Source: Patescibacteria group bacterium
GTDB lineage: Bacteria; Patescibacteriota; Minisyncoccia; UBA6257; 02-FULL-45-10c
DNA length: 64,000 bases
Direction of reading: 5' to 3'
Assembly (NCBI GenBank): GCA_018969615.1
Contig: JAGWYA010000005.1
Location: forward strand, 1,286-65,285
Position 1 is the stretch's first letter. Every line of letters begins with the position of its first letter. Positions 18,688 to 58,756 of this stretch are shown here, in pieces. A program made the translations under genes and the position numbers. The notes beneath the pieces were generated by a model. The model saw nothing but the letters and a program-made list of their open reading frames with translations, did not search any database and was not told where the DNA came from.

Positions 18688-20394
18688 ATGCTGGAACGCC
18701 TCAAAACTTATCTGACTGCCCGGAACCTTTTGATCGCCGTATTGGTGTTCGGTTCGCTGATCCGATTCTGGGGCGTGGGAACCGCGGAGATCTTCAATGA
18801 CGAAGGGTTCTACGCGTTCCGTTCGATCGGCTATCTGGATTACATCCAGAACGTCAGCCAGACGACCCCGATCCAGTGGTTTCAGAATACGGTAATGCCG
18901 TGGTGGACGCATTTGTCGTTCCATGACGTCCCGCCGCTGTTCTTCATGGTGCAGCATTATTTCTTTATGCTGTTCGGCGATTCGCTGTTGGTCGCGCGGC
19001 TCCCGTCGCTTCTCGCCGGGATCGGGACGCTGCTGCTGATGTATTATATCGGGAAACGATTGTTCCAAAATGAATACGCCGGCGTGCTCGCCGCGGCGCT
19101 TCTGGCGGTGAGCAATATGCATATCTGGATCTCGCGTTCGTCGCTGATCGAAGGATTGGAGGTGTTCATCATCGCGGGTGCGATCCTGATCTTTTTGCAT
19201 TTTTTGGAGGACCGGAAAAAATGGTGGCCGTGGCTGGGAGTTGCGTTGGGCGCCGCCGCGCTGACCAAATACACCGCCGTGTTCATCGTGCCGGTGTTTT
19301 TGATCGTTCTGCTGATGCGCGACCGGAAGCTGCTTCTGGCGGGCGAGTTCTGGTATGCAGTGGTGCTTGCGGCGATCCTGTTCTCGCCGGTGATCGTCTA
19401 TAACATTGAGATGTATCATGCGGTCGGTCATTTTGATCTTCAGTTCGCGTATCTGTTTCATCAGGCGACCCCGGAGTGGCAGGCGTCGCTCGGAAAGGTC
19501 CAGGACCCGTTCGGGAATATCGGGAGCAATCTTTTGGCGATGTATTCGATCCCGTTCCTGGTGCTGGCGTTCGGCGGATTCGTACTCGGCCTCGTGGAAT
19601 GGTTTAAAAAGAAAAGCGGCGTTGCGCAGATGCTTCAGGCGGCCGAGTCGTATCTGGGCATTGGTGATCACGGAAATGAATGGGCTCCGCTTGCGGTCAG
19701 CGCGGTGATCCTGATCACGCTCATGCTGGTGGCGGTGGGGTCGGCCTACCGGTTCCTGGCGCTCTACAGCATCTTTTTTGTGATCCTGGCGGTCGCAGCG
19801 CTCTGGGAACTTCGGAAGATCGATGATATCCGGGGATGGTTCGTACTGATCGTGATCGCGCTTTTGGCATACCAATTATATTTTGCGATCGACGGCATTT
19901 TCATGACTTTCCCGGATTTCGGTATCGTGAAGCTCGATGCGTATTTTTCTCAGGGGTTTAACGGGATGCGCTCGGCCGATCCGCCGCAGTCGTCGAATCC
20001 TCATTTGGAACAGGTGATCAAGGATAATCTTTCGTTGGTACCGGCAAGTTCGACGCCGTTCATGATCGTCTATGATGAGAACGTCGCCTTGTCCGCGCGG
20101 CTGTGGCTGTTCACGCGGCGGATCTATTACCACGGCATTTCGGCGGTGACGACGGGGCAGTTCAAGTCATTGCTTCAGTCGAACCAGGCGGCGCTCAAGG
20201 GGATCACGGTCTATTTCGTGAAAGCGAGCCAATACACCTCGCTCAATCCGTATTTAAGCGTTCCCGATGCCTCTGATCTTACAGCATTCCTGACCGCTCC
20301 TTCGGCGAACGGGGGGTTGGGTCTTACGCCGGCGGCAACGATCACCGGATATGACGGATTGCCGATGTTCACGGTCTATAAGTTCACGATGTAA
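18688..20394 (+). CDS. GT-C membrane glycosyltransferase. ArnT/PMT-like, family GT39/GT83: a dolichyl/undecaprenyl-phosphate-sugar-dependent transferase.
   Basis: About 11 TM helices. Conserved first-loop acidic motif (IFNDEGFYAFRS). Large C-terminal periplasmic domain. Start trimmed to MLERLKTYL (18688), because the track ORF start overlaps hairpin (c). Confidence 0.82.
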   Translation: MLERLKTYLTARNLLIAVLVFGSLIRFWGVGTAEIFNDEGFYAFRSIGYLDYIQNVSQTTPIQWFQNTVMPWWTHLSFHDVPPLFFMVQHYFFMLFGDSLLVARLPSLLAGIGTLLLMYYIGKRLFQNEYAGVLAAALLAVSNMHIWISRSSLIEGLEVFIIAGAILIFLHFLEDRKKWWPWLGVALGAAALTKYTAVFIVPVFLIVLLMRDRKLLLAGEFWYAVVLAAILFSPVIVYNIEMYHAVGHFDLQFAYLFHQATPEWQASLGKVQDPFGNIGSNLLAMYSIPFLVLAFGGFVLGLVEWFKKKSGVAQMLQAAESYLGIGDHGNEWAPLAVSAVILITLMLVAVGSAYRFLALYSIFFVILAVAALWELRKIDDIRGWFVLIVIALLAYQLYFAIDGIFMTFPDFGIVKLDAYFSQGFNGMRSADPPQSSNPHLEQVIKDNLSLVPASSTPFMIVYDENVALSARLWLFTRRIYYHGISAVTTGQFKSLLQSNQAALKGITVYFVKASQYTSLNPYLSVPDASDLTAFLTAPSANGGLGLTPAATITGYDGLPMFTVYKFTM

Positions 20395-20400
20395 GGATTC

Positions 20401-20475
20401 CCTTTGACTCCTTTGACGGAATTTTTTGCTTTTTACGTTTGACATTCGACATTCAGACTTTTGACTATTTCGTGT
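20401..20475 (+). repeat. intergenic heptamer/octamer tract cluster: CCTTTGAC TCCTTTGAC ... ACGTTTGAC ATTCGAC ATTCAGAC TTTTGAC
   Basis: Direct reading. Same NTTYGAC family as the other six loci. Confidence 0.8.
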
Positions 20476-20489
20476 GTTATACTAACAGT

Positions 20490-21515
20490 ATGAAAAAAGC
20501 ACTTTTGTTCGCGGGAAGTCTGGGGTTGGTTTTTACGCTGGTCGGCATTGCATCGGCGGCATCGTTCGGGCGAGATCTGACGATCGGTTCGCAGGGAACT
20601 GATGTAACAGACCTTCAGAACTTTTTGACGCAGCAAGGCGTATATACAGGTCCGGTAACCGGGTATTTCGGCCCACTGACTCAGGAAGGCGTGAAGAAGT
20701 TCCAGGAAGCGCATCAGATCACACCGGTCGCCGGCTACTTCGGACCGCTGACGCGCTCGGCGGCGAATGGATTGCTCGGCGTTTCGCAGGCCGCTTCTGT
20801 TGTTTCCGCGGCTCCGGCTGCCTCGGCTGCTTCTTCGCAACTTGATACGGTTGCGGCTCTTTTAAAGCAGCTGCAGGCACTGAAGGATGAGCTTGCGGGA
20901 TTGACCGCTGCGGCTCCGGCGCCCGCTGCAACAACGACCCCCGCGGTTCCCGCGGTAACGCCGGCGACTACGACTCCTGTGACTGCGGTAGCGACCGCAA
21001 CACCGGCGGTTACGGCCTCATCTCTTCCGAATCCGTTTACGAGCCCGATGACGATCGTTTCCGATTATCCGTCCCGGACGCTCAGCTCTTATACCTCCGC
21101 CATTCTCAATGAATATGTTTTGAGCGGGGCACCCGAGAAAGTGGCGATCACAAAATTGCGCGTGACGAATGTCGGAACGTTCAGCGATATCTATATTAAC
21201 GAGTTGGCGTTGTCCAACAGTTTGACCGGGCAGGTGCTGGCGACGACCGGCGCGCCGGTGGACGGCGTAGCGGAGTTCGTGATGACGCCGGATGCGAGCA
21301 AGCCGGATAAGGGCGTGATGGTCTCGGGTGGGATCTATACGATCACGGGTGCGCTGCGGACGCCAAATATCGGGGGAACGAAGCCGTATCTCGAATTGGA
21401 TGTCGCATCATCCACTGACGTCACTGCGGTTGATTACGCGACGCTGTCGCGCACAGCCGACCTGGGGGGATCGAATGCGTTCCCGATCATCGGTCCGCGG
21501 ATCTCGGCTTTTTAG
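20490..21515 (+). CDS. secreted protein with an N-terminal signal peptide, a peptidoglycan-binding domain, an Ala/Pro/Thr-rich linker and a C-terminal domain
   Basis: MKKALLFAGSLGLVFTLVGIASA. PGBD repeats (GTDVTDLQNFL...GYFGPLTQEGVKKFQ...GYFGPLTRSAANGLL). A and PAT-rich linker. The start is trimmed to ATG 20490, since the track start translates the heptamer repeats. Confidence 0.8.
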   Translation: MKKALLFAGSLGLVFTLVGIASAASFGRDLTIGSQGTDVTDLQNFLTQQGVYTGPVTGYFGPLTQEGVKKFQEAHQITPVAGYFGPLTRSAANGLLGVSQAASVVSAAPAASAASSQLDTVAALLKQLQALKDELAGLTAAAPAPAATTTPAVPAVTPATTTPVTAVATATPAVTASSLPNPFTSPMTIVSDYPSRTLSSYTSAILNEYVLSGAPEKVAITKLRVTNVGTFSDIYINELALSNSLTGQVLATTGAPVDGVAEFVMTPDASKPDKGVMVSGGIYTITGALRTPNIGGTKPYLELDVASSTDVTAVDYATLSRTADLGGSNAFPIIGPRISAF

Positions 21516-21572: not shown

Positions 21573-22346
21573 ATGAAAAAAGTCATCGGATTAGTGGTGG
21601 GTGTCGCAGTGCTTGCGTTGGTTATTGTGGGGGTGAGGTATGAGATGGATCGCGGAAGCCGTTGGGCGCAGCCGTCTCCGGAAGAAGCAGTGGTTGCTAC
21701 GACGACGCCGCAGACTGCGGCGACCTCAACCCCGGCAACAGGGGATGATGCCGCATTGCAGGCGGAGGCAGCCCTGCTTTTGGATCAGCCCGCGACCGTC
21801 GACCCTTCTTTAAATCTATCTGACTCGGTGCAGCAGATGGCGCTTCAGAAGATCAAGGATTCGACCGATATGCTCCGCGCGAACTATAACTATGCGAATC
21901 CGTGGTATGACCTGAGCGCGTATCGCCGGATGATCGGAGATTACAACGGCGCGATCGATGACCTCTTGTTCGTGACGAAGATCCGTCCGGATGACTTCGT
22001 TTCGCTTCATGACTTGGGTGATATCTATGCATTCCTGAAGGATTATCCGAAGGCGGAATCGTATTACCTTGCCTCGATCAGTAAGAATCCTCAGAACAGT
22101 GATGCGTATGTGGCGCTTGCGGCGATCTATCAGTACAATGACACGGCGAACGCTTCGCAGATCGTTCCGCTGCTCCAAAAAGGGATCGCGGCGGATCCGA
22201 AAGACGCACGATTACTGATCACGCTGGGAGAATATGAAAAGAGTATTGGCAACACCGCCGAGGCAAAGACTTATTTGAACAAAGCATTGGCGCTGGATCC
22301 GTCCAATACATCTCTCCAGCAGGAGGTCGCCGCGCTTGGCCAATAG
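21573..22346 (+). CDS. membrane-anchored TPR-repeat protein
   Basis: N-terminal TM (VIGLVVGVAVLALVIVGV), followed by several TPR-like repeats (…AYVALAAIYQYNDTANA…AEAKTYLNKALALDP). Confidence 0.78.
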   Translation: MKKVIGLVVGVAVLALVIVGVRYEMDRGSRWAQPSPEEAVVATTTPQTAATSTPATGDDAALQAEAALLLDQPATVDPSLNLSDSVQQMALQKIKDSTDMLRANYNYANPWYDLSAYRRMIGDYNGAIDDLLFVTKIRPDDFVSLHDLGDIYAFLKDYPKAESYYLASISKNPQNSDAYVALAAIYQYNDTANASQIVPLLQKGIAADPKDARLLITLGEYEKSIGNTAEAKTYLNKALALDPSNTSLQQEVAALGQ

Positions 22347-24036
22347 GCGACCGGCTATGCGTACGTGGTTCAGGCCGAAATATGTGCTGATCGCGATCCT
22401 CGCGGTTGCCTTTGCGTTGCGGTTATGGGGGATCGGGAATACGGATATGCTCGGCGATGAAGCGGCTGATGCGTTCCGATCCGTCGGGTATATCGATTAT
22501 CTTGGAACGAGCGCCCAAACGCAGCCGATCGATTGGTTTAAGGATTCTCCGACGCTTCCCGCCTGGACCTCGCTGTCGTTCCATGATGATCCGCCGCTGG
22601 GATTCATGGTCCAGCATTCATTCTTTGCGTTCTTCGGCGATTCATCGACAACCGCGCGTCTCCCGGCGGTTCTTTTTGGTACGCTGGCGGTTTGGCTGCT
22701 CTATGAGATCGCTAAAAAATTGCTCGTGCGCGACCATCGCGGAAGAGATGATCTGTTGTCCGGCAATGCCGTCGAAGGCATCGCGCTTCTCGCGGCGGGA
22801 CTGTATGCGATCGAACCGGCGACAGTGGGTATTTTCCGGACTGCGCTTTTGGAGCCGATCCTCATTTTTTTCGTACTACTGAACCTTTGGTGTTTTCTGA
22901 AGTTCGTTGAGGACCGCCGCTGGTGGTGGCCGTTCGGATTGACCCTGGGAGCGGTTGCGCTGACCAAATATACGGGCGTATTCCTGGTGCCGCTGTATGC
23001 GCTGTACCTTTTTCTGTATGATCGGAAGTTGTTCCGGAGCTGGCGTTTGTATGCGGCGCTTTTGCTGACGGTCATTCTGTTCTCGCCGGTGATCATCTAT
23101 AACGCCCAGCTGTTTCAGGCGCGCGGCCATTTCGATCTGCAGTTCGCCTATCTGCTGCATCAGGCAACGCCCGAATGGACCGGTCTCATCGGGAAAACAC
23201 AGGCGCCGTTCTCGGCGATCATTCCGAATCTGATCACATCCTACGGGATCCCGTTCCTTGCAATGGCGCTTGCCGGTCTTGTCATCGCAGGGATCTGGTA
23301 TCGGAAATATCGCAGACAGGGGATGCTCTTTGTGCTTGCCTATGTTTTATTCTTGGGGCTGCTGTTGGTAAAGATCGGTTCGGCATCCCGTTTTCTGGCG
23401 ATGCTGGGACCTGCGTTTGTGATCCTTGCGGCCATCGCGTTATGGTCTCTGGCCGTGTTTCCGCGCGTTTCGCGTACCGGCCGGTACGCGCTGGTGCTTG
23501 CGGCGGCGCTCTTTATGGCTTATGAGGCGGGCGTTGCGATCGACCGGAATATCGTTTCCTATCCATCGTATGGCGTTGCGGGATTGGACAACTATTTCTC
23601 GCAGCAATTCAGCGGTATTGAGTCTGCGGTCATTCCGGAGGCCGATAATGTGCATCTGACGGCGATCACTAAGGAGTTCGCGGCAAAGAAATCAGCGATC
23701 GCGCCGCGGAAATTGGTGATGATCGTGTATAACGACCAGATAGCCCTTCCGACATTGGAATGGGTGTTCTATCGCCGTTTCTTCTATCATTCGATCCCGA
23801 CGATGTATGTGCAGAACTTTGAAAGCGCTTTGAAAGCGAATCCGACGCAGTTCAATGGTTTTACCGTTTATTTCGTGCAAACGACGCCGCATACCCTTTT
23901 GGACCCGTTCCGGGCGAACGATACGGCCGGCGATGCGTTTGAGCAGCAGGTCATCGCCAACGGCGTGCAGCCGGACGCGGTCATTTACGGCACCGGCCAT
24001 CAGGAAATGTTCCGCGTATACAAGTTTACACTGTAG
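22336..24036 (+). CDS. GT-C membrane glycosyltransferase. ArnT/PMT-like GT39/GT83, a paralogue of the gene at 18688..20394.
   Basis: Same architecture and first-loop motif (MLGDEAADAFRS). Shares many conserved blocks with the 18688 protein (e.g. HFDLQFAYL.HQATPEW, VYKFT). The start may be the Met at 22357. Confidence 0.82.
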   Translation: MANRRPAMRTWFRPKYVLIAILAVAFALRLWGIGNTDMLGDEAADAFRSVGYIDYLGTSAQTQPIDWFKDSPTLPAWTSLSFHDDPPLGFMVQHSFFAFFGDSSTTARLPAVLFGTLAVWLLYEIAKKLLVRDHRGRDDLLSGNAVEGIALLAAGLYAIEPATVGIFRTALLEPILIFFVLLNLWCFLKFVEDRRWWWPFGLTLGAVALTKYTGVFLVPLYALYLFLYDRKLFRSWRLYAALLLTVILFSPVIIYNAQLFQARGHFDLQFAYLLHQATPEWTGLIGKTQAPFSAIIPNLITSYGIPFLAMALAGLVIAGIWYRKYRRQGMLFVLAYVLFLGLLLVKIGSASRFLAMLGPAFVILAAIALWSLAVFPRVSRTGRYALVLAAALFMAYEAGVAIDRNIVSYPSYGVAGLDNYFSQQFSGIESAVIPEADNVHLTAITKEFAAKKSAIAPRKLVMIVYNDQIALPTLEWVFYRRFFYHSIPTMYVQNFESALKANPTQFNGFTVYFVQTTPHTLLDPFRANDTAGDAFEQQVIANGVQPDAVIYGTGHQEMFRVYKFTL

Positions 24037-24139: not shown

Positions 24140-25330
24140 CTACTTGCTACGTACTATTTTCTCGTACACTTCCTCCGTCTTTTTCACCATCGTGGTGAGA
24201 TTGAATGATTTGCGGACAGCGGCGTGCGCTGTTTTTTCGATCTCGCGGGCGATCGACGGATTAGCGAGGAGTCCGGTGATCGCATGAGCAAGTTGTGCCG
24301 GGTCGCGCTGAGTGATCATGATGCCGTTCTCATGGCTTTTGATGATCTCTGGGATGCCCCCGGCCTCGGTGACGATGATCGGCAGCTCGGCCGCCATGGC
24401 TTCCAGGAGAATATACGGAAGACCTTCTTTGATGGAGGACATGACGAACATATCAAAGGCCTTCAGATACCGCGCATCATCTCCGGACGGCGGAATAAAA
24501 AAGAATCTATCGCTGACGTTCGACTTTTGACTTTCGACTTTTAGTTTCGGTAATTCCGGTCCATCGCCGATGATGAAGAAAACGCCGCGGGGGACCAAAG
24601 CGGCCGCGCGGATGAGCGTTTCATAGTTCTTTTCCTTGACGATACGTCCGATCGAACCGATCCAAACCTCTCCGACATTTGACATTTGACGTTCGCCGCC
24701 TTCAGCGAGCCTCGCCCCTGGCGGGACTTTTGACTTGCTTAAAATTTCTTCCCGGGCCTTTTCTTTGCTCAGAAATTTTAAGCTTGGATCGATGCCGTTA
24801 TGGATCATGGTGATCTTGTGATCGGGTGTGATGTGAAGTTGGCGGGCAAGCGCGGCATCGTATTCAGAAACGCAGATGATCGCATCCTGGAATTTCGCTG
24901 TGAGCATATGGAGGGCGATATAGAACCAGCGGATCGGTCCTGCGATCGCATTCGTCGGATTGAAGACCCAGCCATGCGCCGTGAAGACGACTTTGATTGG
25001 ATGACTTTCGACTTTAGACTTTCGACTTTTGACTTTATATATTCTGGCCGCGATCGCGCCTAATACCCCGGCTTTTGAACTATTGAGATGAAGAACGTCC
25101 GGCTGTTCGCGTTTGAGAAGGCGGACGATCTCCGCGACCGCGAGCCAGTCATTCGCGAACAGAAACCACGGACGCGTGGCGTTGGAAAGCCAGCGAAGGT
25201 CCTTTCCGCCATAGACGATCTTTGCTTCAAAGCGGTCCCGGGGGAGGCTTTGAGCAAGATCGGTGACGTATTTTTGCGCCCCGCCGACATCGGCTTTCGT
25301 GATTAGATAGAGGACTTTTATCTTTTTCAT
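24140..25330 (-). CDS. GT4-family glycosyltransferase (group-1 glycosyltransferase). Carries three internal heptamer-repeat tracts (24513-24548, 24672-24736, 24988-25045).
   Basis: C-terminal GT4 motif EGLPYILLEAMAAELPIIVTEAGG. N-terminal GT4 domain. The repeat tracts translate as SAKVESQKSNVSD, MSNVGE and KVKSRKSKVESHP. Confidence 0.88.
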   Translation of the reverse strand: MKKIKVLYLITKADVGGAQKYVTDLAQSLPRDRFEAKIVYGGKDLRWLSNATRPWFLFANDWLAVAEIVRLLKREQPDVLHLNSSKAGVLGAIAARIYKVKSRKSKVESHPIKVVFTAHGWVFNPTNAIAGPIRWFYIALHMLTAKFQDAIICVSEYDAALARQLHITPDHKITMIHNGIDPSLKFLSKEKAREEILSKSKVPPGARLAEGGERQMSNVGEVWIGSIGRIVKEKNYETLIRAAALVPRGVFFIIGDGPELPKLKVESQKSNVSDRFFFIPPSGDDARYLKAFDMFVMSSIKEGLPYILLEAMAAELPIIVTEAGGIPEIIKSHENGIMITQRDPAQLAHAITGLLANPSIAREIEKTAHAAVRKSFNLTTMVKKTEEVYEKIVRSK

Positions 25331-25533
25331 ACACTTTTCTTTTGGGAATTAGAAATTGGTTATTAGAAATTTAATCCTACTGCCCACTGCCTACGCACTA
25401 CTTACTTTTTAGCCCCGTATCCTTATTAGCCTTTCCGGTGTTATATACGGTAAAATTACACTATATCACGCTTTTGGCTTTAGGTTATTTACTGCCCACT
25501 TCCTACTGCCTACGTGCTATTTCTATAACACGC

Positions 25534-26712
25534 ATGAAGAATGAAAAGTCTAACATAGCCGTCTTTTCCTTCGCCTACGCCCCTTTTGAAGGAGGCGCTG
25601 AAGTGGCGCTTAGGGAGATCATGCGCCGGCTCCCGGCGTTCTCCTTTACCGTGTTCACGGCTCATTTTGACGAACGAAGCTCGATCCACGAGGTTCAGGA
25701 CCATGTGGAGATCATCCGTCTCGGAAAGCCGACTCGTCGCCGGTATGGCCTGTTGGTGAAAAAGGTCCGTTATATTTTTCAGGCATGGCAGGCGGCGGAA
25801 GAGCGGCACCGCCGCGCGCGGTTCGATGCGATCTGGGTGGTGATGGCATCCTATGGCGGCATCGCCGCGTTGTTGTTCAAGATGAAGCACCCCTCGATCC
25901 CGATGCTTTTGACCGTTCAGGAAGGGGATTCGGAACGGCATTTGAAATACGGCAAATTCGGCCTGGTCGGATTCTTTGGAAAGGTTTTATTGCATTCCGC
26001 CGATGCGATCCAGGTGATCAGCGGATATTTGCGCGATTTTGCGCTCAGGAAGGGCGCGTCGGAACCGATCACGGTCGTGCCGAACGGCGTTGATGAAAAA
26101 TTGTTCGCGACTGCATACGGTCCTGATCAGCTTCGGACCTTGCGGAACTATCTTGAGATCGGCGACGACTATGTGATCGTGACGACCTCGCGGCTCGTTC
26201 CGAAGAACGGCGTTGATATTCTGATCAAGGCGGTCGCCCGGTTCAGGGAGCGCCGCCCGAACGTGAAGTGTCTGATCATCGGCGGCGGACCGGAGCGGCA
26301 ACGCCTCGAAAGGCTTTCCCGCCGTCTGGGCGTCGAGCGGAACATCGTATTTCTCGGACAAATGGCGCAGAATGATCTCCCGCTGTATTTCGCGATCGCG
26401 GACATGTTCGCCCGGCCGTCCCGTTCGGAAGGATTGGGAAATTCGTTCCTTGAGGCAATGGCGGCGGGCATCCCGGTGATCGGAACGCCGGTAGGCGGGA
26501 TCGTGGATTTTTTGAAGGACGGTGAAACGGGATTTCTTGCGCAGCCGGAGGACCCGGAAAGCGTTGCAGCGAAAATGCATGAGATACTGGATAATGAAGC
26601 GCGGACGCAGGCGATCGTTGCGCGGGCGCGCGAACTGGTGGAGCGGTCCTATACCTGGGATGTTGTGGCGCGCATGATGCGGACGATCTTCGATCAATTG
26701 ATCAATCTATGA
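25534..26712 (+). CDS. GT4-family glycosyltransferase
   Basis: EGLGNSFLEAMAAGIPVIGTPVGG motif. Start trimmed to MKNEKSNIAVF (25534). Confidence 0.88.
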   Translation: MKNEKSNIAVFSFAYAPFEGGAEVALREIMRRLPAFSFTVFTAHFDERSSIHEVQDHVEIIRLGKPTRRRYGLLVKKVRYIFQAWQAAEERHRRARFDAIWVVMASYGGIAALLFKMKHPSIPMLLTVQEGDSERHLKYGKFGLVGFFGKVLLHSADAIQVISGYLRDFALRKGASEPITVVPNGVDEKLFATAYGPDQLRTLRNYLEIGDDYVIVTTSRLVPKNGVDILIKAVARFRERRPNVKCLIIGGGPERQRLERLSRRLGVERNIVFLGQMAQNDLPLYFAIADMFARPSRSEGLGNSFLEAMAAGIPVIGTPVGGIVDFLKDGETGFLAQPEDPESVAAKMHEILDNEARTQAIVARARELVERSYTWDVVARMMRTIFDQLINL

Positions 26713-29005: not shown

Positions 29006-29007
29006 TC

Positions 29008-32988: not shown

Positions 32989-33025
32989 GGAACCGCGTAC
33001 ACGGATCATCGGTTGTACATACTAT

Positions 33026-51314: not shown

Positions 51315-53114
51315 ATGCATCATTTACGATCTAGTATGGAAGTGATCAAGAGGCATCACTTGGTATTGTCATTCGCTTTAATTGTAGGCCTTATTTATGT
51401 CGGGCCATATTTATTTTTCGCATACCATCTCGGCGCCGGTTATCAGGGGATTAATATTACCCGCGCGCCAGACGAAGAGGGGTATCTTACGATCGTCAAT
51501 TCGCTCGCCCGGCGGGGAATAGTGGGAGATCCGTATATCTTTGAATATAGGGATCTGGGGAATAACGTGAACTATTATAGTATCGAATATTTTTTGGCGG
51601 CGACCGCGAACGCTTTCCACGTCATGGTTCCTGATCTGATCCTGGGGCTTAAGTTTCTCGCCCCCGCTGTTCTTTTTGGGGTTGTGTATCTTTTTACCTT
51701 AGAGCTGATGGGGTCGTCAGGCGGGGCGCTTTTCGTTGCGTTGCTTGTTCTTTTGGGGAATGAAGTTGCGCGTACGGGACTTGCTGCGATCCCCGCCCTT
51801 TTTTCCGGAACAGTCGCCTCTACCGATTTTTTGACCTATGCGCGTCCGGTGAATCCGGCGGAAAGTTCCATTCTCTTTTTTGCAGTGCTGTGGCTCATTT
51901 TGAAGTTATACAAAGGCGAACGGAAGTTCGGATCGCTGCCTGCCGCCGCTGCGGTTGGTTTTGCGGTCGGGGCGATGTCGTACATTTATTTTTATTTTTG
52001 GGCCTTTCCTCTGATCTTATGCGGCGTAGTTTTACTGTATGATCTCTTTACGCGAAATAAGGAAGGAGCAAAGCGATTTTTTGTGGCGTTGGCCGCAAGC
52101 GCCTTCGCGGCGGTACCGTTCTTTTTTAATACAGCGGCTCTTTTCCTGGCACCTCCCGCGAACGGCGATTTCGGTGCGCCGCTCCAGAAGGCCTTTACGC
52201 GGACGCATCAGATCATTCCTGAGAAAACCATTTTGCTCCCATTGGTCGTTTTCGCGGTTTTGTATGCGCTGTGGAAATATTCCAAAGAAAAGTGGGGTGA
52301 AGAAGCCGGCCGGTTTGTGAAAAAATATGCTTTTGTCGCTTTGCTTCTTATAACGGGGATCATCGCTTCGAACGAGCAGGTGATCACGGGCATTGAGGTC
52401 CAGCAGCATCATTTCCATTTTTATACCAATATTCCGATGTTGCTGATCGCCGTGGGCATCATGGTGTATGAACTGGTCCGATTGATTCCGCACTGGTGGC
52501 GCGTCACGGCCTTAGGCGGTATTTCTCTTTTTGTGGTCACGTTTGCGATCCAGATCCAGGCTTCATCGTATGCGGCATGGAAACAGGATTTTATTTCTTA
52601 TCAGCGGTATGCCCCGGTCTTTTCGTGGCTGCGATTGAATAGCGGGACGGATACTGTGGTATATGCCGATCAAACAATGTCCGAGATGATCCCGATCTAT
52701 ACGCAGGATTATACATATGGATCGCTGCACGCGGCCGCGTATCCTGTCCCGGTCGTGCGTCTGGAGCATAATTACTTTATGACGCTTTTTTTGCGGGGGG
52801 TTACGAAAGATGATGCGCTTGTGTATCTTTCGGATCCGGAGCATCGGAACGAGATGGGGCAATATATTTTTGAAGGACAGTATTGGAAAGACATGTGCGG
52901 ATCATACGGGTGTTTTCCCGATGCGACATTCAAGAGTTTGGTAAATGATTATGTTTCATTCCTTGGCAATTCTTTTGAGACAAACTTAAAGGAGTATAAA
53001 GTTAACTATATTGTGTGGGACATGGCCAATGATCCAGAATGGAATTTGGGCGGTTACGTATTTCTTAAAGAGGTATATTCTGGAGAACAGATTAAAATAT
53101 TTAAGGTTAATTAA
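51315..53114 (+). CDS. polytopic membrane protein with a C-terminal extracytoplasmic domain (599 aa). Possibly a glycan-processing enzyme or a GT-C-fold protein.
   Basis: About 12 TM helices, then a ~170-aa soluble domain. No family assigned. Confidence 0.55.
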   Translation: MHHLRSSMEVIKRHHLVLSFALIVGLIYVGPYLFFAYHLGAGYQGINITRAPDEEGYLTIVNSLARRGIVGDPYIFEYRDLGNNVNYYSIEYFLAATANAFHVMVPDLILGLKFLAPAVLFGVVYLFTLELMGSSGGALFVALLVLLGNEVARTGLAAIPALFSGTVASTDFLTYARPVNPAESSILFFAVLWLILKLYKGERKFGSLPAAAAVGFAVGAMSYIYFYFWAFPLILCGVVLLYDLFTRNKEGAKRFFVALAASAFAAVPFFFNTAALFLAPPANGDFGAPLQKAFTRTHQIIPEKTILLPLVVFAVLYALWKYSKEKWGEEAGRFVKKYAFVALLLITGIIASNEQVITGIEVQQHHFHFYTNIPMLLIAVGIMVYELVRLIPHWWRVTALGGISLFVVTFAIQIQASSYAAWKQDFISYQRYAPVFSWLRLNSGTDTVVYADQTMSEMIPIYTQDYTYGSLHAAAYPVPVVRLEHNYFMTLFLRGVTKDDALVYLSDPEHRNEMGQYIFEGQYWKDMCGSYGCFPDATFKSLVNDYVSFLGNSFETNLKEYKVNYIVWDMANDPEWNLGGYVFLKEVYSGEQIKIFKVN

Positions 53115-53120
53115 GAAATA

Positions 53121-54179
53121 ATGGTCGTCCATTTTTTTACCAAAGGCGATAAAAACGTAGCAAGTTCGCGTTACAGGGGCTATTATTGGGCTGAAGGCTT
53201 GATTCGAGCCGGCCATCACGCCGATGTATATCCGATCAGTGCCGACTTTAAAGCGACGAATTCTTTTGGTAAAAATATCAGCCTTTTTTTCAAATATCTT
53301 CGACTCCTAACCTCTTTTCGGGGGAAAAATGAAGCGATCTTCCTCCAGCGTACCGTTTATAATAAGTATTTCTTTTTAGACATACTTTTGGTCCGTCTGT
53401 TTTTGGGAAGAAAGTATATTTTTGATATGGATGACGCGGTTTTTGAGCATTCATTTTTAAAAACATGGATATTAGTGAAACTGGCAAGCGCGGTGACATG
53501 TGGTAGCATGTTTATTTTTGAATGGGCGAAAAAGCATAATAAAAATTCATTTTATTTTCTGAACTCACTTCCACCGGATATTTATGCCTCTCGTCATGGA
53601 TCGGGCTCCGATATCCCGGTGATCGGCTGGGCAGGCGATGGTCCGGCACATTTTGAGAACTTGAAGTTGCTCCCCCCGATCTTCGAACGGCTTATTGCTG
53701 ATGGACTTCGTTTTAAGTTCACTCTTATCGGCGCATTGGGGGATGGGCGCGTGCATGACCTATTTGCCTCTGTTAAAGGATTAGATTACGCGATCATCGA
53801 TCGCTTGGACTGGTCGGATCCCCGCAATGTAGCTCGTGAGATCGCGCAGTTCGATATTGGGATCATGCCGATGATAGAGAACCGATGGAATAAGGCGAAG
53901 TATTTTAAGACTCTGGAATATATGGCATGCGGAGTTCCTGCGCTCGCGGGGGATTTTGGTGAAAATACGCATATTATTGAGAATGGCGAAAATGGATTTC
54001 TTCTGAAAGATGGCGAAGAATGGTATCAGAAATTAAAGCTTCTTATTTCGGACAAAGATCTGAGAATAAAACTTGGAAAGAGAGGACTGGAAACTATTAA
54101 AGAGCGTTTCTCGCTCGAAAAAGCGACCGCGAGATTAATAAACACGCTTATTCAGTCGCATCTGATCGAAAAGGAGTAA
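53121..54179 (+). CDS. group-1 (GT4-like) glycosyltransferase
   Basis: C-terminal LEYMACGVPALAGDFGENTHIIENGENGFL, the typical GT-B C-domain. Confidence 0.72.
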   Translation: MVVHFFTKGDKNVASSRYRGYYWAEGLIRAGHHADVYPISADFKATNSFGKNISLFFKYLRLLTSFRGKNEAIFLQRTVYNKYFFLDILLVRLFLGRKYIFDMDDAVFEHSFLKTWILVKLASAVTCGSMFIFEWAKKHNKNSFYFLNSLPPDIYASRHGSGSDIPVIGWAGDGPAHFENLKLLPPIFERLIADGLRFKFTLIGALGDGRVHDLFASVKGLDYAIIDRLDWSDPRNVAREIAQFDIGIMPMIENRWNKAKYFKTLEYMACGVPALAGDFGENTHIIENGENGFLLKDGEEWYQKLKLLISDKDLRIKLGKRGLETIKERFSLEKATARLINTLIQSHLIEKE

Positions 54180-54207
54180 GATAAGAGTAGGCTATCCATT
54201 ATTTCTT

Positions 54208-55131
54208 ATGAAAAAGATCGTATGCAATGTTTGCGGTTCGGAAAAATATAAAAACCTATTTCTTGGAAGAGATAGGCTTCTTGCCATTGACTCAAAGACC
54301 TTTCAGGTTGTGAGGTGCTCGCAGTGCGGTCTGACGTATTTAAATCCTCAGCCGACTGCCGATGAGCTCCGCATTTATTACCCGGAAACGTACGGTCCCT
54401 ATGGCAATACCGGAACGATCTTCCATTATGGAGCGATGGCTGCGGCGCTTCGAAAGATCTATCACGGCATCAGATCTCTTTTCCCTCGCGCCAAGAAGAG
54501 CGTGAAAGAGGGTGGAGCAAAAGAGGATGAGCGTATTTCGTATCTTGATTTCGGTTGTGGCGGCGGACTTCAGCTTGAAGCGGTCCGAAAAGATCATCCG
54601 AACTGGGACCTTTATGGCCTCGATAATAATCCCGTTGCCTGTGAGCGAACTGAAGCAAAAGGATTCAAGGTATTTTGCGGAGAGCTTTCTGAAGTTTCCT
54701 TACCCGAAAAATTCTTTGACAGGGTAAATATGAGCCATGTCATCGAGCACGTGAACGATCCGAAGCAGACACTGGCAGTACTCGGGCGATCGATCAAGAA
54801 AGGAGGTATCATCGTGATCGCTACGCCGAACATCAGAAGCTTCTCGGCAAAAATTTTCGGTTCATATTGGTATGCCCTCGATACGCCGCGCCATCTTTTT
54901 CTTTTCAATGCAAAGACGCTCGGGAGGATATTAAAGGATGCGGGATTTACGGTAAAAAAAGTGGATTACGATAAAGGGCCGAAAGTTTTTGTTCGAAGTC
55001 TTTTTTATGTAATGGGCCGGAAAGATATGATGATCAGTCCGCTCCTTTGGAGGTCGCTTAGTCTTTTTAGCCGTTTTGCAGCTCACTTAGGCATGACCAG
55101 TATCATGACGGTCTATGCAGAAAAGGAATAA
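54208..55131 (+). CDS. class I SAM-dependent methyltransferase with an N-terminal Cys4 zinc ribbon
   Basis: CNVCGS...CSQCG. YLDFGCGGG...KKGGIIVIATPN. Confidence 0.85.
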   Translation: MKKIVCNVCGSEKYKNLFLGRDRLLAIDSKTFQVVRCSQCGLTYLNPQPTADELRIYYPETYGPYGNTGTIFHYGAMAAALRKIYHGIRSLFPRAKKSVKEGGAKEDERISYLDFGCGGGLQLEAVRKDHPNWDLYGLDNNPVACERTEAKGFKVFCGELSEVSLPEKFFDRVNMSHVIEHVNDPKQTLAVLGRSIKKGGIIVIATPNIRSFSAKIFGSYWYALDTPRHLFLFNAKTLGRILKDAGFTVKKVDYDKGPKVFVRSLFYVMGRKDMMISPLLWRSLSLFSRFAAHLGMTSIMTVYAEKE

Positions 55132-55135
55132 GGAT

Positions 55136-56401
55136 TTAGGTATTTGAGGTGCGAGCGTAAAGGAGATACACAAGAGAAGAACCGAAAAATCGCGTGGCGA
55201 TACGCGCGATCACAAGTCCTAGTAGCCCCCATCCGATGACGCCGATGACCATAGACCCGATCTGGAAAAGGGACACAGCGATATTATTGACGTATTGTTC
55301 CCGCACTTTCTTTTTTGCAATAAGATAGGACGCTGCCGGCGTGAAGATGACCGTAAGGATCGAGATCGCATAGATCTGCGAGTAGAAAACCGCCTCCATA
55401 TATTTCGGGAAGAATATTGCAAAGAAATAAGGAGCGAGAAGGATATAGAGCGCGACGAAGAGGGTACTTGAAAGCGCAAGCCAGAAGATCTTGTTCCGCA
55501 TTCCGGTCCTGACCTCTTTATCAGTCCGATCGACGAACTTTGCCTGGGTCATTGTATTGAACATATTGAGTGGTCCTTTGGTCTGGTCGGGGATGGCGGT
55601 AGCAAAGTTATAAATGGCGAGCTGGACCGGTCCGACAAAATGAAAGAGCAGTACCTGGTCGATATTGGCGGCGATTGTGCTAAGAATACCCATAGCGGAA
55701 AGATGCTTGGCGTAGGTCATCATGCCCGGGTCAGTTTTGACGTGGTCGGGTTGGTAGATCGCAGCGATGCGGCGATAGATCCAGAGCGTGGCGAGAGTGT
55801 TGCCGAGGAAGTAGACCGTGGCAAGAGTGAGCGGGTTTGGCGCAAGGAAGATCGTAATGATCAGCGCGCCGCTGGAGAGAAGTGTTTCAATGACGCCGAT
55901 ATAAAGCGCGGTGCGGCGGAAATCCTTTTTTGCGTTCAGGAATGCAGCGATAAGATTCGCGCTGGCAAGAAGTGGTGAGAGTGTTCCGCCGATAAGCACG
56001 CCATAGGCAAGAATGTGATCGCCTTGTGTGAAATAATAAGCCGCAAGGCCGAAGGCGCCGAGGAAAACAAGCACGCTCCATTTGATGTTCTGCCAGAATC
56101 CTTCATGAAGTGATCCGTCGAATCCGCTGGCGGCTGATTGGAAGACGGCAGTGCTGAGTCCGGTGAGGGAGAACGACGAGAGGAGCGCGACAACGCCGAT
56201 GATGTATTTATATTCGCCGTAGACGTCTTTGGGCAGATAGCGCGCTACGATGATCGCGAAGATAAAGACGGTGACTGAGGAGACGACTTGTCCGATGATG
56301 GCCCAAAATTGTCCGCCGGCAAGATAGATCATGTCGGTTTTGGTATAACGCTCGCTCCAGCGGAGCGCGGCGTGGGCTTTTTCTTTTGCCTTGGCGATCA
56401 T
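55136..56401 (-). CDS. Wzx-like polysaccharide-biosynthesis flippase (MOP superfamily)
   Basis: 421 aa. About 12 TM helices. Polysacc_synt-like N-terminal block ...VFIFAIIVARYLPKDVYGEY... Confidence 0.78.
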   Translation of the reverse strand: MIAKAKEKAHAALRWSERYTKTDMIYLAGGQFWAIIGQVVSSVTVFIFAIIVARYLPKDVYGEYKYIIGVVALLSSFSLTGLSTAVFQSAASGFDGSLHEGFWQNIKWSVLVFLGAFGLAAYYFTQGDHILAYGVLIGGTLSPLLASANLIAAFLNAKKDFRRTALYIGVIETLLSSGALIITIFLAPNPLTLATVYFLGNTLATLWIYRRIAAIYQPDHVKTDPGMMTYAKHLSAMGILSTIAANIDQVLLFHFVGPVQLAIYNFATAIPDQTKGPLNMFNTMTQAKFVDRTDKEVRTGMRNKIFWLALSSTLFVALYILLAPYFFAIFFPKYMEAVFYSQIYAISILTVIFTPAASYLIAKKKVREQYVNNIAVSLFQIGSMVIGVIGWGLLGLVIARIATRFFGSSLVYLLYARTSNT

Positions 56402-56455
56402 ATTATTGGAACGTTTTTTATAGGCGGAAAGTATCGGGAGACATTGCCTTTCGCC

Positions 56456-58756
56456 ATGAGTAAAAAGGGAGTATACTTATGGGATTATCGCATGAAGGCT
56501 GCGGACTCACAACGACCGCACATGCGTGCTACACAAAGTATGAGTACTGATTCGATCAGAAAATGGCTTGAGAAAGCGATCAAGTGGTCGCTGCTCGTGG
56601 TTCCGTTCATTCCGCTGTACATCGCCCCGGCGCTTTTCTTTCCGTATATCACCGGGAAGGCGTTCGCGTTCCGTGCGATCGTAGAGATCGTGTTCTTCGC
56701 CTGGGTGTTTTTGGCGATCCTCTATAAGGAATATCGCCCGAAATGGGATGCAGTTGCGGTCGCGATCGCGGTATGGCTTGGCGTGGTAAGTCTCGCGGCC
56801 ATGTTCGGGATCAACCCGGTCCGGAGCTTCTGGTCAAACTTCGAGCGCATGGAGGGTGTGGCGACCTATATTCATCTTTTTGCCTACTTCCTGGTCATTG
56901 CCTCAGTGCTGAAGAAAAAGGATTGGACTTGGTTTTTCAATGCGTTCCTGATCGGCGGGTTCTTTGAGAACGTCTACGTACTGCTCCAGTGGGCCGGTTT
57001 GCTTTCCTCGCCGCAGGGCGGGTTTCGTGCGGACGGAACGATCGGAAATCCGGAATATGTTGCGGCTTACCTGATCTTCATCGCCGCGATCGCAGCGATC
57101 ATGTGGCTGAAGACGGATCATGCCCAGAAAACGCTCCGAGCGTTGTATCTGACGATGGGTTTGTGGACGCTCGCCTCGATCTATTTCACCGTGAGCCGCG
57201 GTCCGGTGATCGGTTTGATCGGCGGTGCATTCTGTGCCGGTGCTCTGTATCTGATCTTGAAGCGCCCGCAGACCGTCCGTGAGAAAGTGGTTTATAAAAT
57301 GACCGCCGGCATTGTCGGCCTTATGATCGTTGTGCCGATGTCGCTGTGGCTGATGCGCGGTATGCCGTTCATTAAGAACAGCCAGTCGTTGAGCCGTTTG
57401 ACCTCTTATTCGTTCACCGACGGCACGGTTGCCGCGCGTTTGACGATCTGGGGGATGAGCTTGCAGGGAGTGCGGGAACGTCCGCTGCTGGGCTGGGGTC
57501 CGGAGAACTATATCACGGTCTTTTCACGCTATTATCAGCCGAGTATGTATTCGCAGGAGCCGTGGTTCGACCGGTCGCATAATATCGTCTTTGACTGGCT
57601 GATCAACGCCGGTATTCTCGGCCTTGCGTCCTATTTGAGCCTCTTCGGCGCCGCGTTCTATCTGCTGATCCGCGCGATGCGGAAGCGTCCCGAGCTTCTC
57701 GAGGAGGGACTGCTGATCTTCGCCGTGTTCCTGGCGTACTTCTTCCAGAATTTGTTCGTGTTCGATAACCTTGCGACCTATATCTGCTTCTTCGCCTTTT
57801 TGGCATACATCGCTTCGATCGGCCGGGATGATTTTGCCAGTGAAACGGTGGTGTCCCGCACAGAACAGCCGAGCGAGGAGTTGCTGACCATTGCCGCGAT
57901 CGGTTCGGTGCTGGTGTTTCTGGGAGTGTTCTATTTTATGATCTGGAGTCCGCTGATGGCGAACTACGATCTGCTGGCGGCATTGAAGGCTCAGGCGACG
58001 CCGGGCGCGGATGCGCAGACGGTTTTGAATGATTTCACCGCGGCGCTCTCGTGGAGCCCGATGGGCAAGCAGGAGATCCGTGAGCAGTTCTCGAGCTTTG
58101 CGCAGAATATTGTGCCGGCGACCAGCGTGGCATCGTCGACGAAAGATGAGGTGGTCCGGCAGGCGCTGGCGGAAGATCAAAAGAGCGTCATGGAGAACCC
58201 GACGGATCCGCGCGTGTATCTGGTGCTGGGCAGCTTGTATGATACGGTAGGACAGTATGACCAGGCGATCGCGATCTTCCAGAAAGCGAAAGTCCTTTCG
58301 CCGGAAAAGCAGCAGATCGATTTTGAGATCGCTGACGCCTACTTTAAGATGAACGACTACACGGATGCGATCACGCTGTTGGAAAAGACATTAGCCGAGG
58401 CGCCGGACTTCAGTGAGGCGCGCATGAATCTGGTGGCGGCATACATATTGAGCGGACAGCAAAGCCAGGCGGACCAGCTTCTGATGGAGGGGTACGGGAC
58501 GGTCAATGTCTCGGATACGCTGCTCGCGCAGGTGTATTCGAAGGTGAAGGATTATAACCGTTTGGTAGGCGTGTGGCAGGCGTTCGTGAAGAATAACCCG
58601 CAGAACCTCGATTATCGCAAGAACCTTGCCGGCGCATATCTTCTGGTAGGGAATCGGCCGCAGGCGGCAGCTGTTTTGCAGCAGGCGATCGTTGATTTTC
58701 CGAGTTTCCAGGCTGAGGGCCAGGCCTACATTTCACAGATCACCGCAGGACAATAA
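56456..58756 (+). CDS. O-antigen-ligase/polymerase-like membrane protein (Wzy_C/O-antigen ligase domain) with C-terminal TPR repeats
   Basis: Polytopic N-terminal half. A conserved periplasmic loop ...ERPLLGWGPENY.... C-terminal TPR-like repeats (…AIAIFQKAKVLSPE…AITLLEKTLAEAPD…). Start chosen at ATG 56456, which overlaps the end of the minus-strand flippase gene. Alternative starts at 56492 and 56522. Confidence 0.78.
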   Translation: MSKKGVYLWDYRMKAADSQRPHMRATQSMSTDSIRKWLEKAIKWSLLVVPFIPLYIAPALFFPYITGKAFAFRAIVEIVFFAWVFLAILYKEYRPKWDAVAVAIAVWLGVVSLAAMFGINPVRSFWSNFERMEGVATYIHLFAYFLVIASVLKKKDWTWFFNAFLIGGFFENVYVLLQWAGLLSSPQGGFRADGTIGNPEYVAAYLIFIAAIAAIMWLKTDHAQKTLRALYLTMGLWTLASIYFTVSRGPVIGLIGGAFCAGALYLILKRPQTVREKVVYKMTAGIVGLMIVVPMSLWLMRGMPFIKNSQSLSRLTSYSFTDGTVAARLTIWGMSLQGVRERPLLGWGPENYITVFSRYYQPSMYSQEPWFDRSHNIVFDWLINAGILGLASYLSLFGAAFYLLIRAMRKRPELLEEGLLIFAVFLAYFFQNLFVFDNLATYICFFAFLAYIASIGRDDFASETVVSRTEQPSEELLTIAAIGSVLVFLGVFYFMIWSPLMANYDLLAALKAQATPGADAQTVLNDFTAALSWSPMGKQEIREQFSSFAQNIVPATSVASSTKDEVVRQALAEDQKSVMENPTDPRVYLVLGSLYDTVGQYDQAIAIFQKAKVLSPEKQQIDFEIADAYFKMNDYTDAITLLEKTLAEAPDFSEARMNLVAAYILSGQQSQADQLLMEGYGTVNVSDTLLAQVYSKVKDYNRLVGVWQAFVKNNPQNLDYRKNLAGAYLLVGNRPQAAAVLQQAIVDFPSFQAEGQAYISQITAGQ

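Follow-up and report, generated by a model that had tools for sequence, protein, structure and literature searches.

A candidate surface-glycosylation island in Patescibacteria, dense in GT-C and GT2 glycosyltransferases and linked to a surface-protein gene

The subject of this study is a cluster of glycan genes in a window of 64,000 nucleotides (contig JAGWYA010000005.1, assembly GCA_018969615.1) from a member of the Patescibacteria, the candidate phyla radiation (CPR). Between positions 18622 and 58756 lie 33 tightly packed genes with hardly any intergenic space, 31 of which belong to glycan-related families; the exceptions are a PG_binding_1 protein and a tetratricopeptide repeat (TPR) protein. 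The gene set was taken from the list of open reading frames (ORFs), Pfam was run on every ORF of at least 100 residues in 14746-63137 and on the flanking housekeeping genes, and NCBIfam was reserved for key, informative ORFs. The locus holds 19 glycosyltransferases (GTs) plus one Wzy_C-domain transferase (Table 1). A first-pass annotation from the sequence alone had listed about nine GT4 enzymes, four small GT2 enzymes resembling polyprenyl-P-sugar synthases, up to about six GT-C membrane transferases, two AsnB-type amidotransferases, six S-adenosylmethionine (SAM) methyltransferases, an exostosin-like enzyme, a lysyl-PG-synthase-type flippase-like protein, a Wzx flippase and a Wzy_C/TPR protein. 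That inventory was near-exact: the GT-B/GT4-type genes number eight (starting at 24140 on the minus strand, 25438, 26709, 27842, 29774, 42384, 49379 and 53121), Pfam and NCBIfam bear out the rest, with the GT2 matches below NCBIfam cut-offs, and the list lacked the PG_binding_1 protein (20439) and the TPR protein (21573) inside the island. The left edge had been set at 18688 and the surface-protein gene just upstream had not been noticed; synteny moves that edge to 14746, so that on comparative grounds the island appears to span 14746-58756, about 44 kb.

The upstream gene encodes a 1209-residue protein with a hydrophobic segment at the N-terminus, a PG_binding_1 domain and 13 Thr in a row; Ser plus Thr make up 26% of its residues and Cys 0.3%. 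Its homologues keep both the length (about 1200 residues) and the Ser/Thr content (22-26%), and a PDB sequence search with it gave no matches. For comparison, all fetched loci (handles beginning with L) were translated and then searched with the island proteins. The order surface protein, PMT2a, PG_binding_1 protein, PMT2b/TPR, one GT4 gene on the opposite strand and three further GT4 genes is kept in all nine loci with close orthologues (PMT_2 at 500 bits or more). The two PMT_2 proteins are 40% identical to each other; the gene for the 358-residue PG_binding_1 protein is kept between them in 13 related loci, and that for the 257-residue TPR protein is kept in 23. A homologue of the 1209-residue protein ends within 4 kb of a PMT_2 gene in 16 of the 36 loci that have at least 4.2 kb of upstream DNA, and this linkage can still be seen at PMT_2 identities as low as about 28-30%. 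Three distant loci (L069, L072 and L082) have a Wzy_C-TPR gene placed between those for the surface protein and PMT_2, and L092 has the same TPR–Wzy_C-TPR arrangement with no surface-protein gene seen. Homologues of the small GT2 at 28969 adjoin PMT_2 genes in 15 loci.

By domain or fold, six proteins of the island are GT-C enzymes, the upper figure of the first-pass annotation: three match PMT_2, one is recognised through its homologues and two through structure prediction. NCBI names the 439-residue protein 'glycosyltransferase family 39 protein', and PMT_2 matches were obtained for five homologues (P0029 and P0035-38). The proteins of 657 and 599 residues have no Pfam or NCBIfam match; homologues of each were aligned, and AlphaFold2 (AF2) models of both were compared with the PDB by Foldseek. 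The 657-residue model (pLDDT 77, pTM 0.82) has DPY19, STT3, AftA and PglB as its top matches (best E 5e-7), the 599-residue model (pLDDT 72, pTM 0.73) has STT3, DPY19, PglB and ArnT (best E 7e-6), and all significant matches of either model are GT-C enzymes (DPY19, STT3/OST, PglB, AftA, AftD, ArnT and Pmt4). Within a few residues of the end of the first transmembrane helix (TM1), all six proteins show an acidic motif, D-E or D, as do PMT and ArnT enzymes, and a WWD or W[WY]D[YWF]G (WWDYG) motif is absent from all six. An STT3-type oligosaccharyltransferase was considered and rejected for want of that motif, the STT3 matches being at fold level only, with 11-14% identity. The 657-residue family appears to be distantly related to DUF2298, which six of 12 members match weakly by Pfam, and gave 13 hits in a prefiltered search and 23 loci in a GTDB scan. 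Members of the 599-residue family match no Pfam family, even weakly. An early count of 10 hits had made this second family look very rare; a full profile search over 1.84 billion representatives returned 1870 relatives, 519 of them at E<=1e-30, and the low count was an artefact of the word prefilter.

We regard gene fusions in the 599-residue family as the strongest mechanistic evidence on how these enzymes may work. GT2, GtrA and GT-C are the three parts of classical three-component glycosylation systems. N-terminal to the GT-C, homologues carry a GT2 domain (P0021, P0022, P0040, P0042, P0078, P0104 and an 818-residue ORF in L010), a GtrA_DPMS_TM domain (P0082, P0105 and P0123), an LPG_synthase_TM domain (P0058 and P0059) or a GT4 domain (P0110). 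The fusions thus support the presence of several predicted three-component modules made up of a lipid-sugar synthase, a flippase and a GT-C. GT2_32248 of the island is closest to the GT2 domains fused to GT-C proteins of this family, its best match being the GT2 part of the 818-residue ORF. No GtrA was found in the window, where an LPG_synthase_TM protein (gene 48387) stands instead; because LPG_synthase_TM holds the N-terminal position of GtrA in the fusions, this protein may flip polyprenyl-P-sugars, and the pattern suggests that the domain, which is MprF-flippase-like, is a general polyprenyl-P-sugar flippase. Taken on its own, the three-component logic seems to us likely to be right, and the six GT-C proteins, their motif after TM1 and the fusions agree with the earlier proposal of GT-C chemistry on lipid-linked monosaccharides combined with methylation and amidation. 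A further fusion involves another island family: in a Zambryskibacteria metagenome-assembled genome (MAG; L014, 3386-5887) an exostosin (GT47)-like domain is joined to a PMT2c-type GT-C in one protein of 833 residues, and in a Vogelbacteria MAG (L010, 4959-7371) the two genes are adjacent. A cytoplasmic GT-B fused to a GT-C is an unusual architecture.

The small GT2 enzymes find their best NCBIfam matches in ArnC, PgfS, PpgS, AglJ and a haloarchaeal dolichyl-P-hexose transferase, in every case below the equivalog cut-offs. GT2_43583, whose two C-terminal TM helices are typical of ArnC/GtrB, aligns end to end with ArnC at 200 bits, where the cut-off is 529; the remaining GT2 enzymes match PpgS, AglJ or dolichyl-P-hexose transferase weakly. 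These matches bear on a scheme of archaeal style, in which an AglJ-like GT2 would start a glycan on polyprenyl monophosphate, GT4 enzymes would extend it and a novel GT-C would transfer the whole glycan to the surface protein. Such a scheme would account for the phosphoglycosyl transferase missing from the window, and it draws on the GT2 matches to the AglJ and haloarchaeal models, on STT3/PglB as the best structural matches of the 599-residue protein and on the GT4 fusion in P0110. However, the AglJ matches all lie far under their cut-offs, none of the six GT-C proteins has WWDYG and the STT3 matches reflect the generic GT-C-A fold, and the fusions with GtrA, LPG_synthase_TM and GT2 point to monosaccharide donors. 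We consider this scheme very improbable.

Returning to three-component modules, gene order in the window points to three donor-editing units. The first consists of PMT2c, GT2_32248 and AsnB1, with the genes overlapping or nearly so; the second, on the minus strand, of GT2_37132, an RmlD-like short-chain dehydrogenase/reductase (SDR) and the 439-residue GT-C; and the third of GT2_43583, AsnB2, the 657-residue GT-C and LPG_synthase_TM. The SDR scores 203 bits against TIGR01214, under its cut-off of 224; it had been overlooked, and with it (36214-37119, minus strand) the earlier statement that no obvious nucleotide-sugar biosynthesis genes are present becomes slightly too strong. AsnB1 and AsnB2 each combine a class II GATase domain carrying an N-terminal MCG nucleophile with an Asn_synthase domain and exceed the cut-off of TIGR01536. 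Their genomic context argues for a glycan-amidating role over Asn synthesis: a triad of an ArnC-like GT2, AsnB and a 657-residue GT-C recurs in seven other loci (L001, L003, L006, L013, L017, L022 and L024). AsnB lies within 10 kb of the 657-residue GT-C in about 10 of 21 informative loci, far more often than one would expect of a gene with one or two copies per genome. The conserved sub-unit is thus GT2-AsnB-GT-C, in place of the AsnB, GT4 and methyltransferase sub-operons that had been proposed. UDP-glucose dehydrogenase genes near the module in L001 and L005 would fit a uronic acid that is amidated by AsnB. In L001 and L002 the 657-residue GT-C also stands beside NeuB/CMP-sugar synthetase genes, carbamoyltransferases and TagF-like glycerophosphotransferases, and it is possible that the family serves chemically very different glycans.

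No signal peptide or TM helix is predicted in the AsnB, SDR and methyltransferase proteins, where two methyltransferases show single weak hydrophobic peaks. Because GT-C enzymes act outside the membrane, modification of the donor must take place in the cytoplasm, on a nucleotide sugar or on a lipid-linked sugar. Precedents for editing of the lipid-linked donor include ArnD and the deacetylases of the Francisella, Bordetella and mycobacterial amino-sugar triads. In the three-component system of Citrobacter youngae O2, a cytoplasmic SDR edits the undecaprenyl-P-linked donor (PMC11127046).

The right end of the island holds Wzx and the Wzy_C-TPR protein, whose start is probably ATG 56456 or 56541. 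A PDB sequence search with the latter gave matches confined to the TPR repeats, and the Wzx orthologue in L013 scores 627 bits. Pfam found no phosphoglycosyl transferase (Bac_transf or Glycos_transf_4, of the WecA/WbaP/MraY type) among the ORFs of the window; nor did it find there Wzz, Wza, an ABC exporter or an LCP ligase, or TagO/TagA/TagB/TagF and a TagGH ABC exporter, and TagF-like Glyphos_transf was seen only in the related locus L001. No NCBIfam equivalog of a characterised pathway reached its cut-off. The first-pass annotation had thus rightly noted the absence of Wzz/Wza and ABC-exporter genes, and its view that the locus fits no standard O-antigen, capsule or teichoic-acid type agrees with the defining genes missing from the window. 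A lipopolysaccharide (LPS) O-antigen locus was rejected on the lack of a phosphoglycosyl transferase and Wzz in the window and on the patescibacterial source, and a teichoic acid locus on the lack there of TagO/A/B/F, TagGH and LCP. CPR bacteria are generally without LPS; their wall is Gram-positive-like and often bears a surface layer. A starter for the Wzx/Wzy_C branch may be encoded in another part of the genome; alternatively, polyprenyl monophosphate may be the carrier on which the glycan is assembled.

The Wzx/Wzy_C pair and the eight GT4 enzymes would also fit repeat-unit synthesis of a secondary wall polymer or capsule-like polysaccharide on peptidoglycan, with the surface protein conserved nearby as a binder or anchored partner, as Firmicutes S-layer genes are by wall-polymer loci. 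In keeping with this, the surface proteins carry the wall-binding PG_binding_1 domain and L001 has two TagF-like Glyphos_transf genes beside its 657-residue GT-C, and synteny alone does not separate an acceptor from an anchor. Yet an LCP ligase, a TagO/WecA or WbaP starter, TagF and an ABC exporter were not found in the window, and the GT-C enzymes encoded nearest the surface protein are of the PMT/PMT_2 group, in which the founding PMT enzymes are protein O-mannosyltransferases. The TPR partners suggest recognition of protein, and PG_binding_1 binds peptidoglycan, not a secondary polymer. On balance we think a wall polymer unlikely to be the product.

A membrane-anchored lipoglycan comparable to the mycobacterial phosphatidylinositol mannosides, lipomannan and lipoarabinomannan (PIM/LM/LAM) seems to us quite improbable. 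Here GT4 enzymes would glycosylate a lipid inside the cell and GT-C enzymes would extend it with polyprenyl-P-sugars after flipping. The combination of GT4, GT2 of the polyprenyl-P-sugar-synthase type and many GT-C with no phosphoglycosyl transferase follows LM/LAM logic, and AftA, AftD and PimE are among the structural matches. Against this, no PimA/PimB or MptA/B equivalog was matched and no phosphatidylinositol-related gene occurs in the island; a CDP-alcohol phosphatidyltransferase at 4601-5530 is 9 kb away from the island and shows no synteny in the relatives that were examined. A lipoglycan would, moreover, leave the Wzx/Wzy_C pair and the conserved surface protein with no role.

Our preferred reading, which we hold to be somewhat more probable than the alternatives taken together, is that 14746-58756 is a CPR surface-glycosylation locus of S-layer-glycoprotein type in which the 1209-residue protein is most likely the acceptor; put more broadly, the locus would add sugars to a surface protein or to some other surface glycan. 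GT4-type, GT2 and GT47-like enzymes would build a polyprenyl-linked oligosaccharide in the cytoplasm, Wzx would flip it, and the Wzy_C-TPR protein would polymerise it or hand it to the acceptor. In parallel, several three-component modules would decorate this product on the outer side of the membrane: a small GT2 would place one sugar on polyprenyl phosphate, AsnB, the RmlD-like SDR and SAM methyltransferases may edit the lipid-linked donor in the cytoplasm, LPG_synthase_TM in the role of GtrA would flip it, and one of the six GT-C enzymes would transfer the sugar. The single sugars so added would be methylated, amidated and possibly reduced or epimerised, and the acceptor would be the Ser/Thr-rich, PG-binding 1209-residue surface protein together with the smaller, paralogue-like protein of 358 residues. 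Several points weigh against this reading. We infer glycosylation of the 1209-residue protein and its assembly into an S-layer from gene context and composition, a Thr- or Thr/Pro-rich (poly-Thr) linker is found in some of its homologues only, and a wall-polymer anchor would give the same synteny between surface-protein and glycan genes. AsnB is lacking in about half of the loci of the 657-residue family, and the substrates of AsnB and the methyltransferases could be nucleotide sugars and not lipid-linked donors. The Foldseek TM-scores of the 657- and 599-residue models are moderate (0.40-0.56), the Wzy_C domain fits a ligase, an O-oligosaccharyltransferase or a polymerase alike, and the window holds no starter phosphoglycosyl transferase for the Wzx/Wzy_C branch.

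Looking beyond this genome, a scan for the 657-residue family with one genome per GTDB species gave its 23 loci, 21 of them on Patescibacteria-type contigs, including Vogel-, Zambryski-, Nealson-, Kuenen- and Peregrinibacteria, Paceibacterota, Minisyncoccia and MAGs labelled 'Saccharibacteria', with two partial matches in Chloroflexota. Three contigs (L006, L009 and L016) are labelled 'uncultured Gammaproteobacteria' and show a CPR-type 657-residue GT-C in a GT2/AsnB context; these labels probably stem from mistakes in binning or naming. A metagenome scan for the PMT2a/b pair gave 68 loci, many from 0.1-um groundwater filter fractions. L003 has three methyltransferase genes, GT4, GT2, AsnB and the 657-residue GT-C, then further on GT4, a methyltransferase, LPG_synthase_TM and the 599-residue GT-C, after which comes a full rml set; L013, a condensed version, closes with the same Wzx(-)/Wzy_C-TPR pair; and L010 (Vogelbacteria) and L014 (Zambryskibacteria) keep exostosin, PMT2c, GT4 and GT2 and, further along, the 657- and 599-residue GT-C genes. 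Judged from these sequences, the island belongs to ultra-small CPR bacteria, and loci of this modular type recur across the lineage. Its inventory is unusual against textbook loci yet typical of Patescibacteria, being met on dozens of contigs. Base composition suggests recent exchange of modules: GC content is 0.35-0.47 in the block 48387-55131, which is the entire unit of LPG_synthase_TM, GT4, methyltransferase, GT-C, GT4 and methyltransferase, and in gene 41428-42228, against 0.52-0.60 elsewhere in the island, which suggests that the block was recently brought in from a lower-GC relative.

Parts of the island resemble several described systems. Three-component systems (GtrA/GtrB/GtrX O-antigen glucosylation, ArnC/ArnD/ArnEF/ArnT, CsbB/GtcA/YfhO, and ORF15/ORF14/ORF12 with the ORF13 epimerase of Citrobacter youngae; PMC11127046) load one sugar onto polyprenyl phosphate in the cytoplasm, export it by a small flippase and transfer it outside by a GT-C, the logic proposed for the island, and their cytoplasmic auxiliary enzymes (ArnD, the ORF13 SDR) can remodel the lipid-linked donor, which the GT2-SDR-GT-C operon of the island parallels. 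The island differs in packing as many as six GT-C and four GT2 enzymes together, compared with one side-chain module, in a flippase candidate of LPG_synthase_TM (MprF-flippase-like) type as against GtrA, SMR or MATE, in the AsnB auxiliary of its recurrent triad, in two GT-C families that reach no Pfam model and in a host that, by general knowledge, is without LPS. From described systems we know of no AsnB amidotransferase serving as an auxiliary in a three-component system, and our search of a limited collection of papers found no description of the locus type or of AsnB in such a setting. The same gene logic is that of the amino-sugar triads PpgS/Rv3779 of mycobacteria, FlmF2/NaxD/FlmK of Francisella and LgmA/LgmC/LgmB of Bordetella, which consist of a GT2, an editor of the lipid-linked sugar and a GT-C and so match GT2-AsnB-GT-C. 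Their editor is a deacetylase and their acceptors are lipid A or arabinogalactan, whereas the editor of the island would be a glutamine-dependent amidotransferase that presumably converts a uronic acid to its amide.

The slg clusters that glycosylate S-layer proteins in Geobacillus and Paenibacillus, and in Tannerella the general O-glycosylation locus (reviewed in PMC2943079; PMC6120980), are, like the island, glycan loci beside or linked to a surface-protein gene, in their case for a surface-layer protein. They include a Wzy_C-domain protein, there a WsaB-type O-oligosaccharyltransferase, several GT-B enzymes and methyltransferases that modify the glycan, and their acceptors are Ser/Thr-linked, as would suit the Ser/Thr-rich candidate beside the island. 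In contrast to slg clusters, the window has no WsaP-type starter, no ABC exporter and no full rml set, and heavy use of GT-C with polyprenyl-P-monosaccharide modules is not seen in slg clusters. The 1209-residue candidate, in turn, is a putative S-layer protein that carries PG_binding_1 in place of SLH or CWB2. Actinobacterial protein O-mannosylation (Pmt of GT39 with Ppm1) offers PMT/PMT_2 GT-C enzymes with D-E after TM1, a GT2 donor synthase and, as acceptors, secreted proteins with Thr/Pro/Ala-rich linkers. The island differs by two paralogous PMT_2 enzymes embedded among TPR and PG-binding partners and four GT4 enzymes; their identity to characterised Pmt enzymes is low, and none reaches an equivalog model. 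The parts and the logic of the island are of known kinds, and no new principle is involved. What sets it apart is the density of GT-C and GT2 genes, two GT-C families beyond Pfam, LPG_synthase_TM as candidate flippase, AsnB as candidate auxiliary and the linkage to a surface protein across CPR classes. A more specific proposal would make the GT2-AsnB-GT-C triads and the LPG_synthase_TM flippase an undescribed kind of three-component system, in which a polyprenyl-P uronic acid is amidated, flipped and transferred by GT-C families new to Pfam and probably to CAZy, so that together with the PMT_2/Wzy_C-TPR core the island makes the methylated and amidated coat of the main S-layer-like protein of groundwater Patescibacteria. 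We offer this tentatively, and in its full form we regard it as doubtful.

Table 1. Genes of the island and the evidence for each assignment (positions in the window)
Feature	Coordinates	Strand	Evidence
1209-residue secreted/anchored surface protein, candidate glycoprotein acceptor or wall-layer protein	14746..18375	+	Pfam PG_binding_1, sequence, composition, synteny
PMT2a, GT-C glycosyltransferase, ~10 TM, NDEGFY motif after TM1	18622..20394	+	Pfam PMT_2 87 bits, PMT 51 bits
358-residue exported PG_binding_1 protein, Thr/Pro/Ala-rich linker	20439..21515	+	Pfam, sequence
257-residue membrane-anchored TPR protein	21573..22346	+	Pfam TPR families
PMT2b, GT-C glycosyltransferase	22336..24036	+	Pfam PMT_2 70.5 bits
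GT4-type, first in conserved four-gene block	24140..25330	-	Pfam Glycos_transf_1 + Glyco_transf_4, synteny
GT4-type, block gene 2	25438..26712	+	Pfam, synteny
GT4-type, block gene 3	26709..27851	+	Pfam, synteny
GT4-type, block gene 4	27842..29005	+	Pfam, synteny
Small soluble GT2, polyprenyl-P-sugar-synthase-like (PpgS/AglJ/PgfS-like); start maybe ATG 29008	28969..29766	+	Pfam Glycos_transf_2, NCBIfam
GT4-like GT-B glycosyltransferase	29774..30808	+	Pfam
PMT2c, GT-C glycosyltransferase, FDEG motif after TM1	30812..32251	+	Pfam PMT_2 38 bits
Small GT2 (GT2_32248)	32248..32988	+	Pfam
AsnB-type glutamine amidotransferase 1 (AsnB1); start probably MCG 33026	32966..34885	+	Pfam Asn_synthase 288 bits + GATase_7, NCBIfam
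439-residue GT-C, GT39-like, 8 TM; last gene of minus-strand unit GT2-SDR-GT-C	34889..36208	-	NCBI name, homologues
RmlD-like SDR reductase/epimerase, between GT2 and GT-C genes	36214..37119	-	Pfam RmlD_sub_bind 196 bits
Small GT2, ArnC / dolichyl-P-hexose-transferase-like (GT2_37132)	37132..37842	-	Pfam, NCBIfam
SAM methyltransferase	37953..38867	+	Pfam; L003 orthologue 403 bits
SAM methyltransferase	38854..39492	+	Pfam
SAM methyltransferase	39498..40286	+	Pfam
Exostosin (GT47)-like GT-B glycosyltransferase	40351..41400	+	Pfam Exostosin_GT47 46.6 bits, cut-off 33.4
SAM methyltransferase, GC 0.39	41428..42228	-	Pfam
GT4-type glycosyltransferase	42384..43529	+	Pfam
ArnC/GtrB-type GT2, two C-terminal TM helices, candidate polyprenyl-P-sugar synthase (GT2_43583)	43583..44530	+	Pfam 114 bits
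AsnB-type glutamine amidotransferase 2 (AsnB2), MCG N-terminus	44536..46413	+	Pfam, NCBIfam
657-residue GT-C-fold membrane protein, no Pfam match	46410..48383	+	AF2, Foldseek
LPG_synthase_TM / flippase-like, candidate polyprenyl-P-sugar flippase, GC 0.35	48387..49382	+	Pfam 129.6 bits, TIGR00374
GT4-type glycosyltransferase	49379..50530	+	Pfam
SAM methyltransferase	50523..51275	+	Pfam
599-residue GT-C-fold membrane protein, PDEEGY motif after TM1, no Pfam family	51315..53114	+	AF2, Foldseek, fusions
GT4-like GT-B glycosyltransferase	53121..54179	+	Pfam
SAM methyltransferase	54208..55131	+	Pfam
Wzx/MOP-family flippase	55136..56401	-	Pfam Polysacc_synt 44 bits, NCBIfam MOP flippase
Wzy_C (O-antigen-ligase / O-oligosaccharyltransferase / polymerase superfamily) membrane domain + C-terminal TPR	56288..58756	+	Pfam Wzy_C 69.8 bits, TPR

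To the right, the island is flanked by a trio of genes for a sigma70_r4 and HARE-HTH protein (58863-59954), a 433-residue protein with no family match (60024-61325) and a TrwB/VirD4-like coupling ATPase (61371-63137). A mobile-element boundary at this edge was considered and rejected, the trio being found in the same order beside a GT2 and PMT_2 pair in the metagenome locus L083. A 639-residue ORF with no family match (58896-60815, minus strand) runs antisense to the sigma/HARE-HTH and 433-residue genes and is probably not a gene. To the left, four tRNA genes (Ala-TGC, Arg-TCG, Pro-CGG and Ala-CGC) lie within 310-9702 among housekeeping genes. The tRNA-Pro gene (5449-5522) overlaps the mechanically called upstream end of the CDP-alcohol phosphatidyltransferase ORF (4601-5530, minus strand), and the true start of that ORF is therefore further in. 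A Glu/Lys-rich protein of 348 residues with a C-terminal TM helix and no family match is encoded at 8541-9587, and L030 has a homologue (446 bits) on the upstream side of its surface-protein gene.

Patescibacteria make up a large share of bacterial diversity, their cultivated members live attached to other microbes, and little is known of their cell-surface chemistry. CPR genomes are typically about 1 Mb in size. Published papers on CPR genomes have remarked only on many glycosyltransferases or on investment in envelope sugars (PMC5220378, PMC4736985), and the 19 glycosyltransferases of this single locus come close to the 20 reported for an entire Parcubacteria genome (PMC5220378). The locus supplies a candidate surface glycoprotein, two uncharacterised GT-C families, one of them with more than 500 diverged relatives, a candidate class of flippase and a candidate amidation step, and it offers a testable entry point to CPR surface chemistry. 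If the assignment of the acceptor is true, the locus would be the first genetic handle on the S-layer-like coat of ultra-small groundwater cells and on likely determinants of recognition by hosts and phages. If the triads do prove to be an undescribed three-component system, the coat that they help to make would be the interface at which episymbionts meet their hosts and phages.

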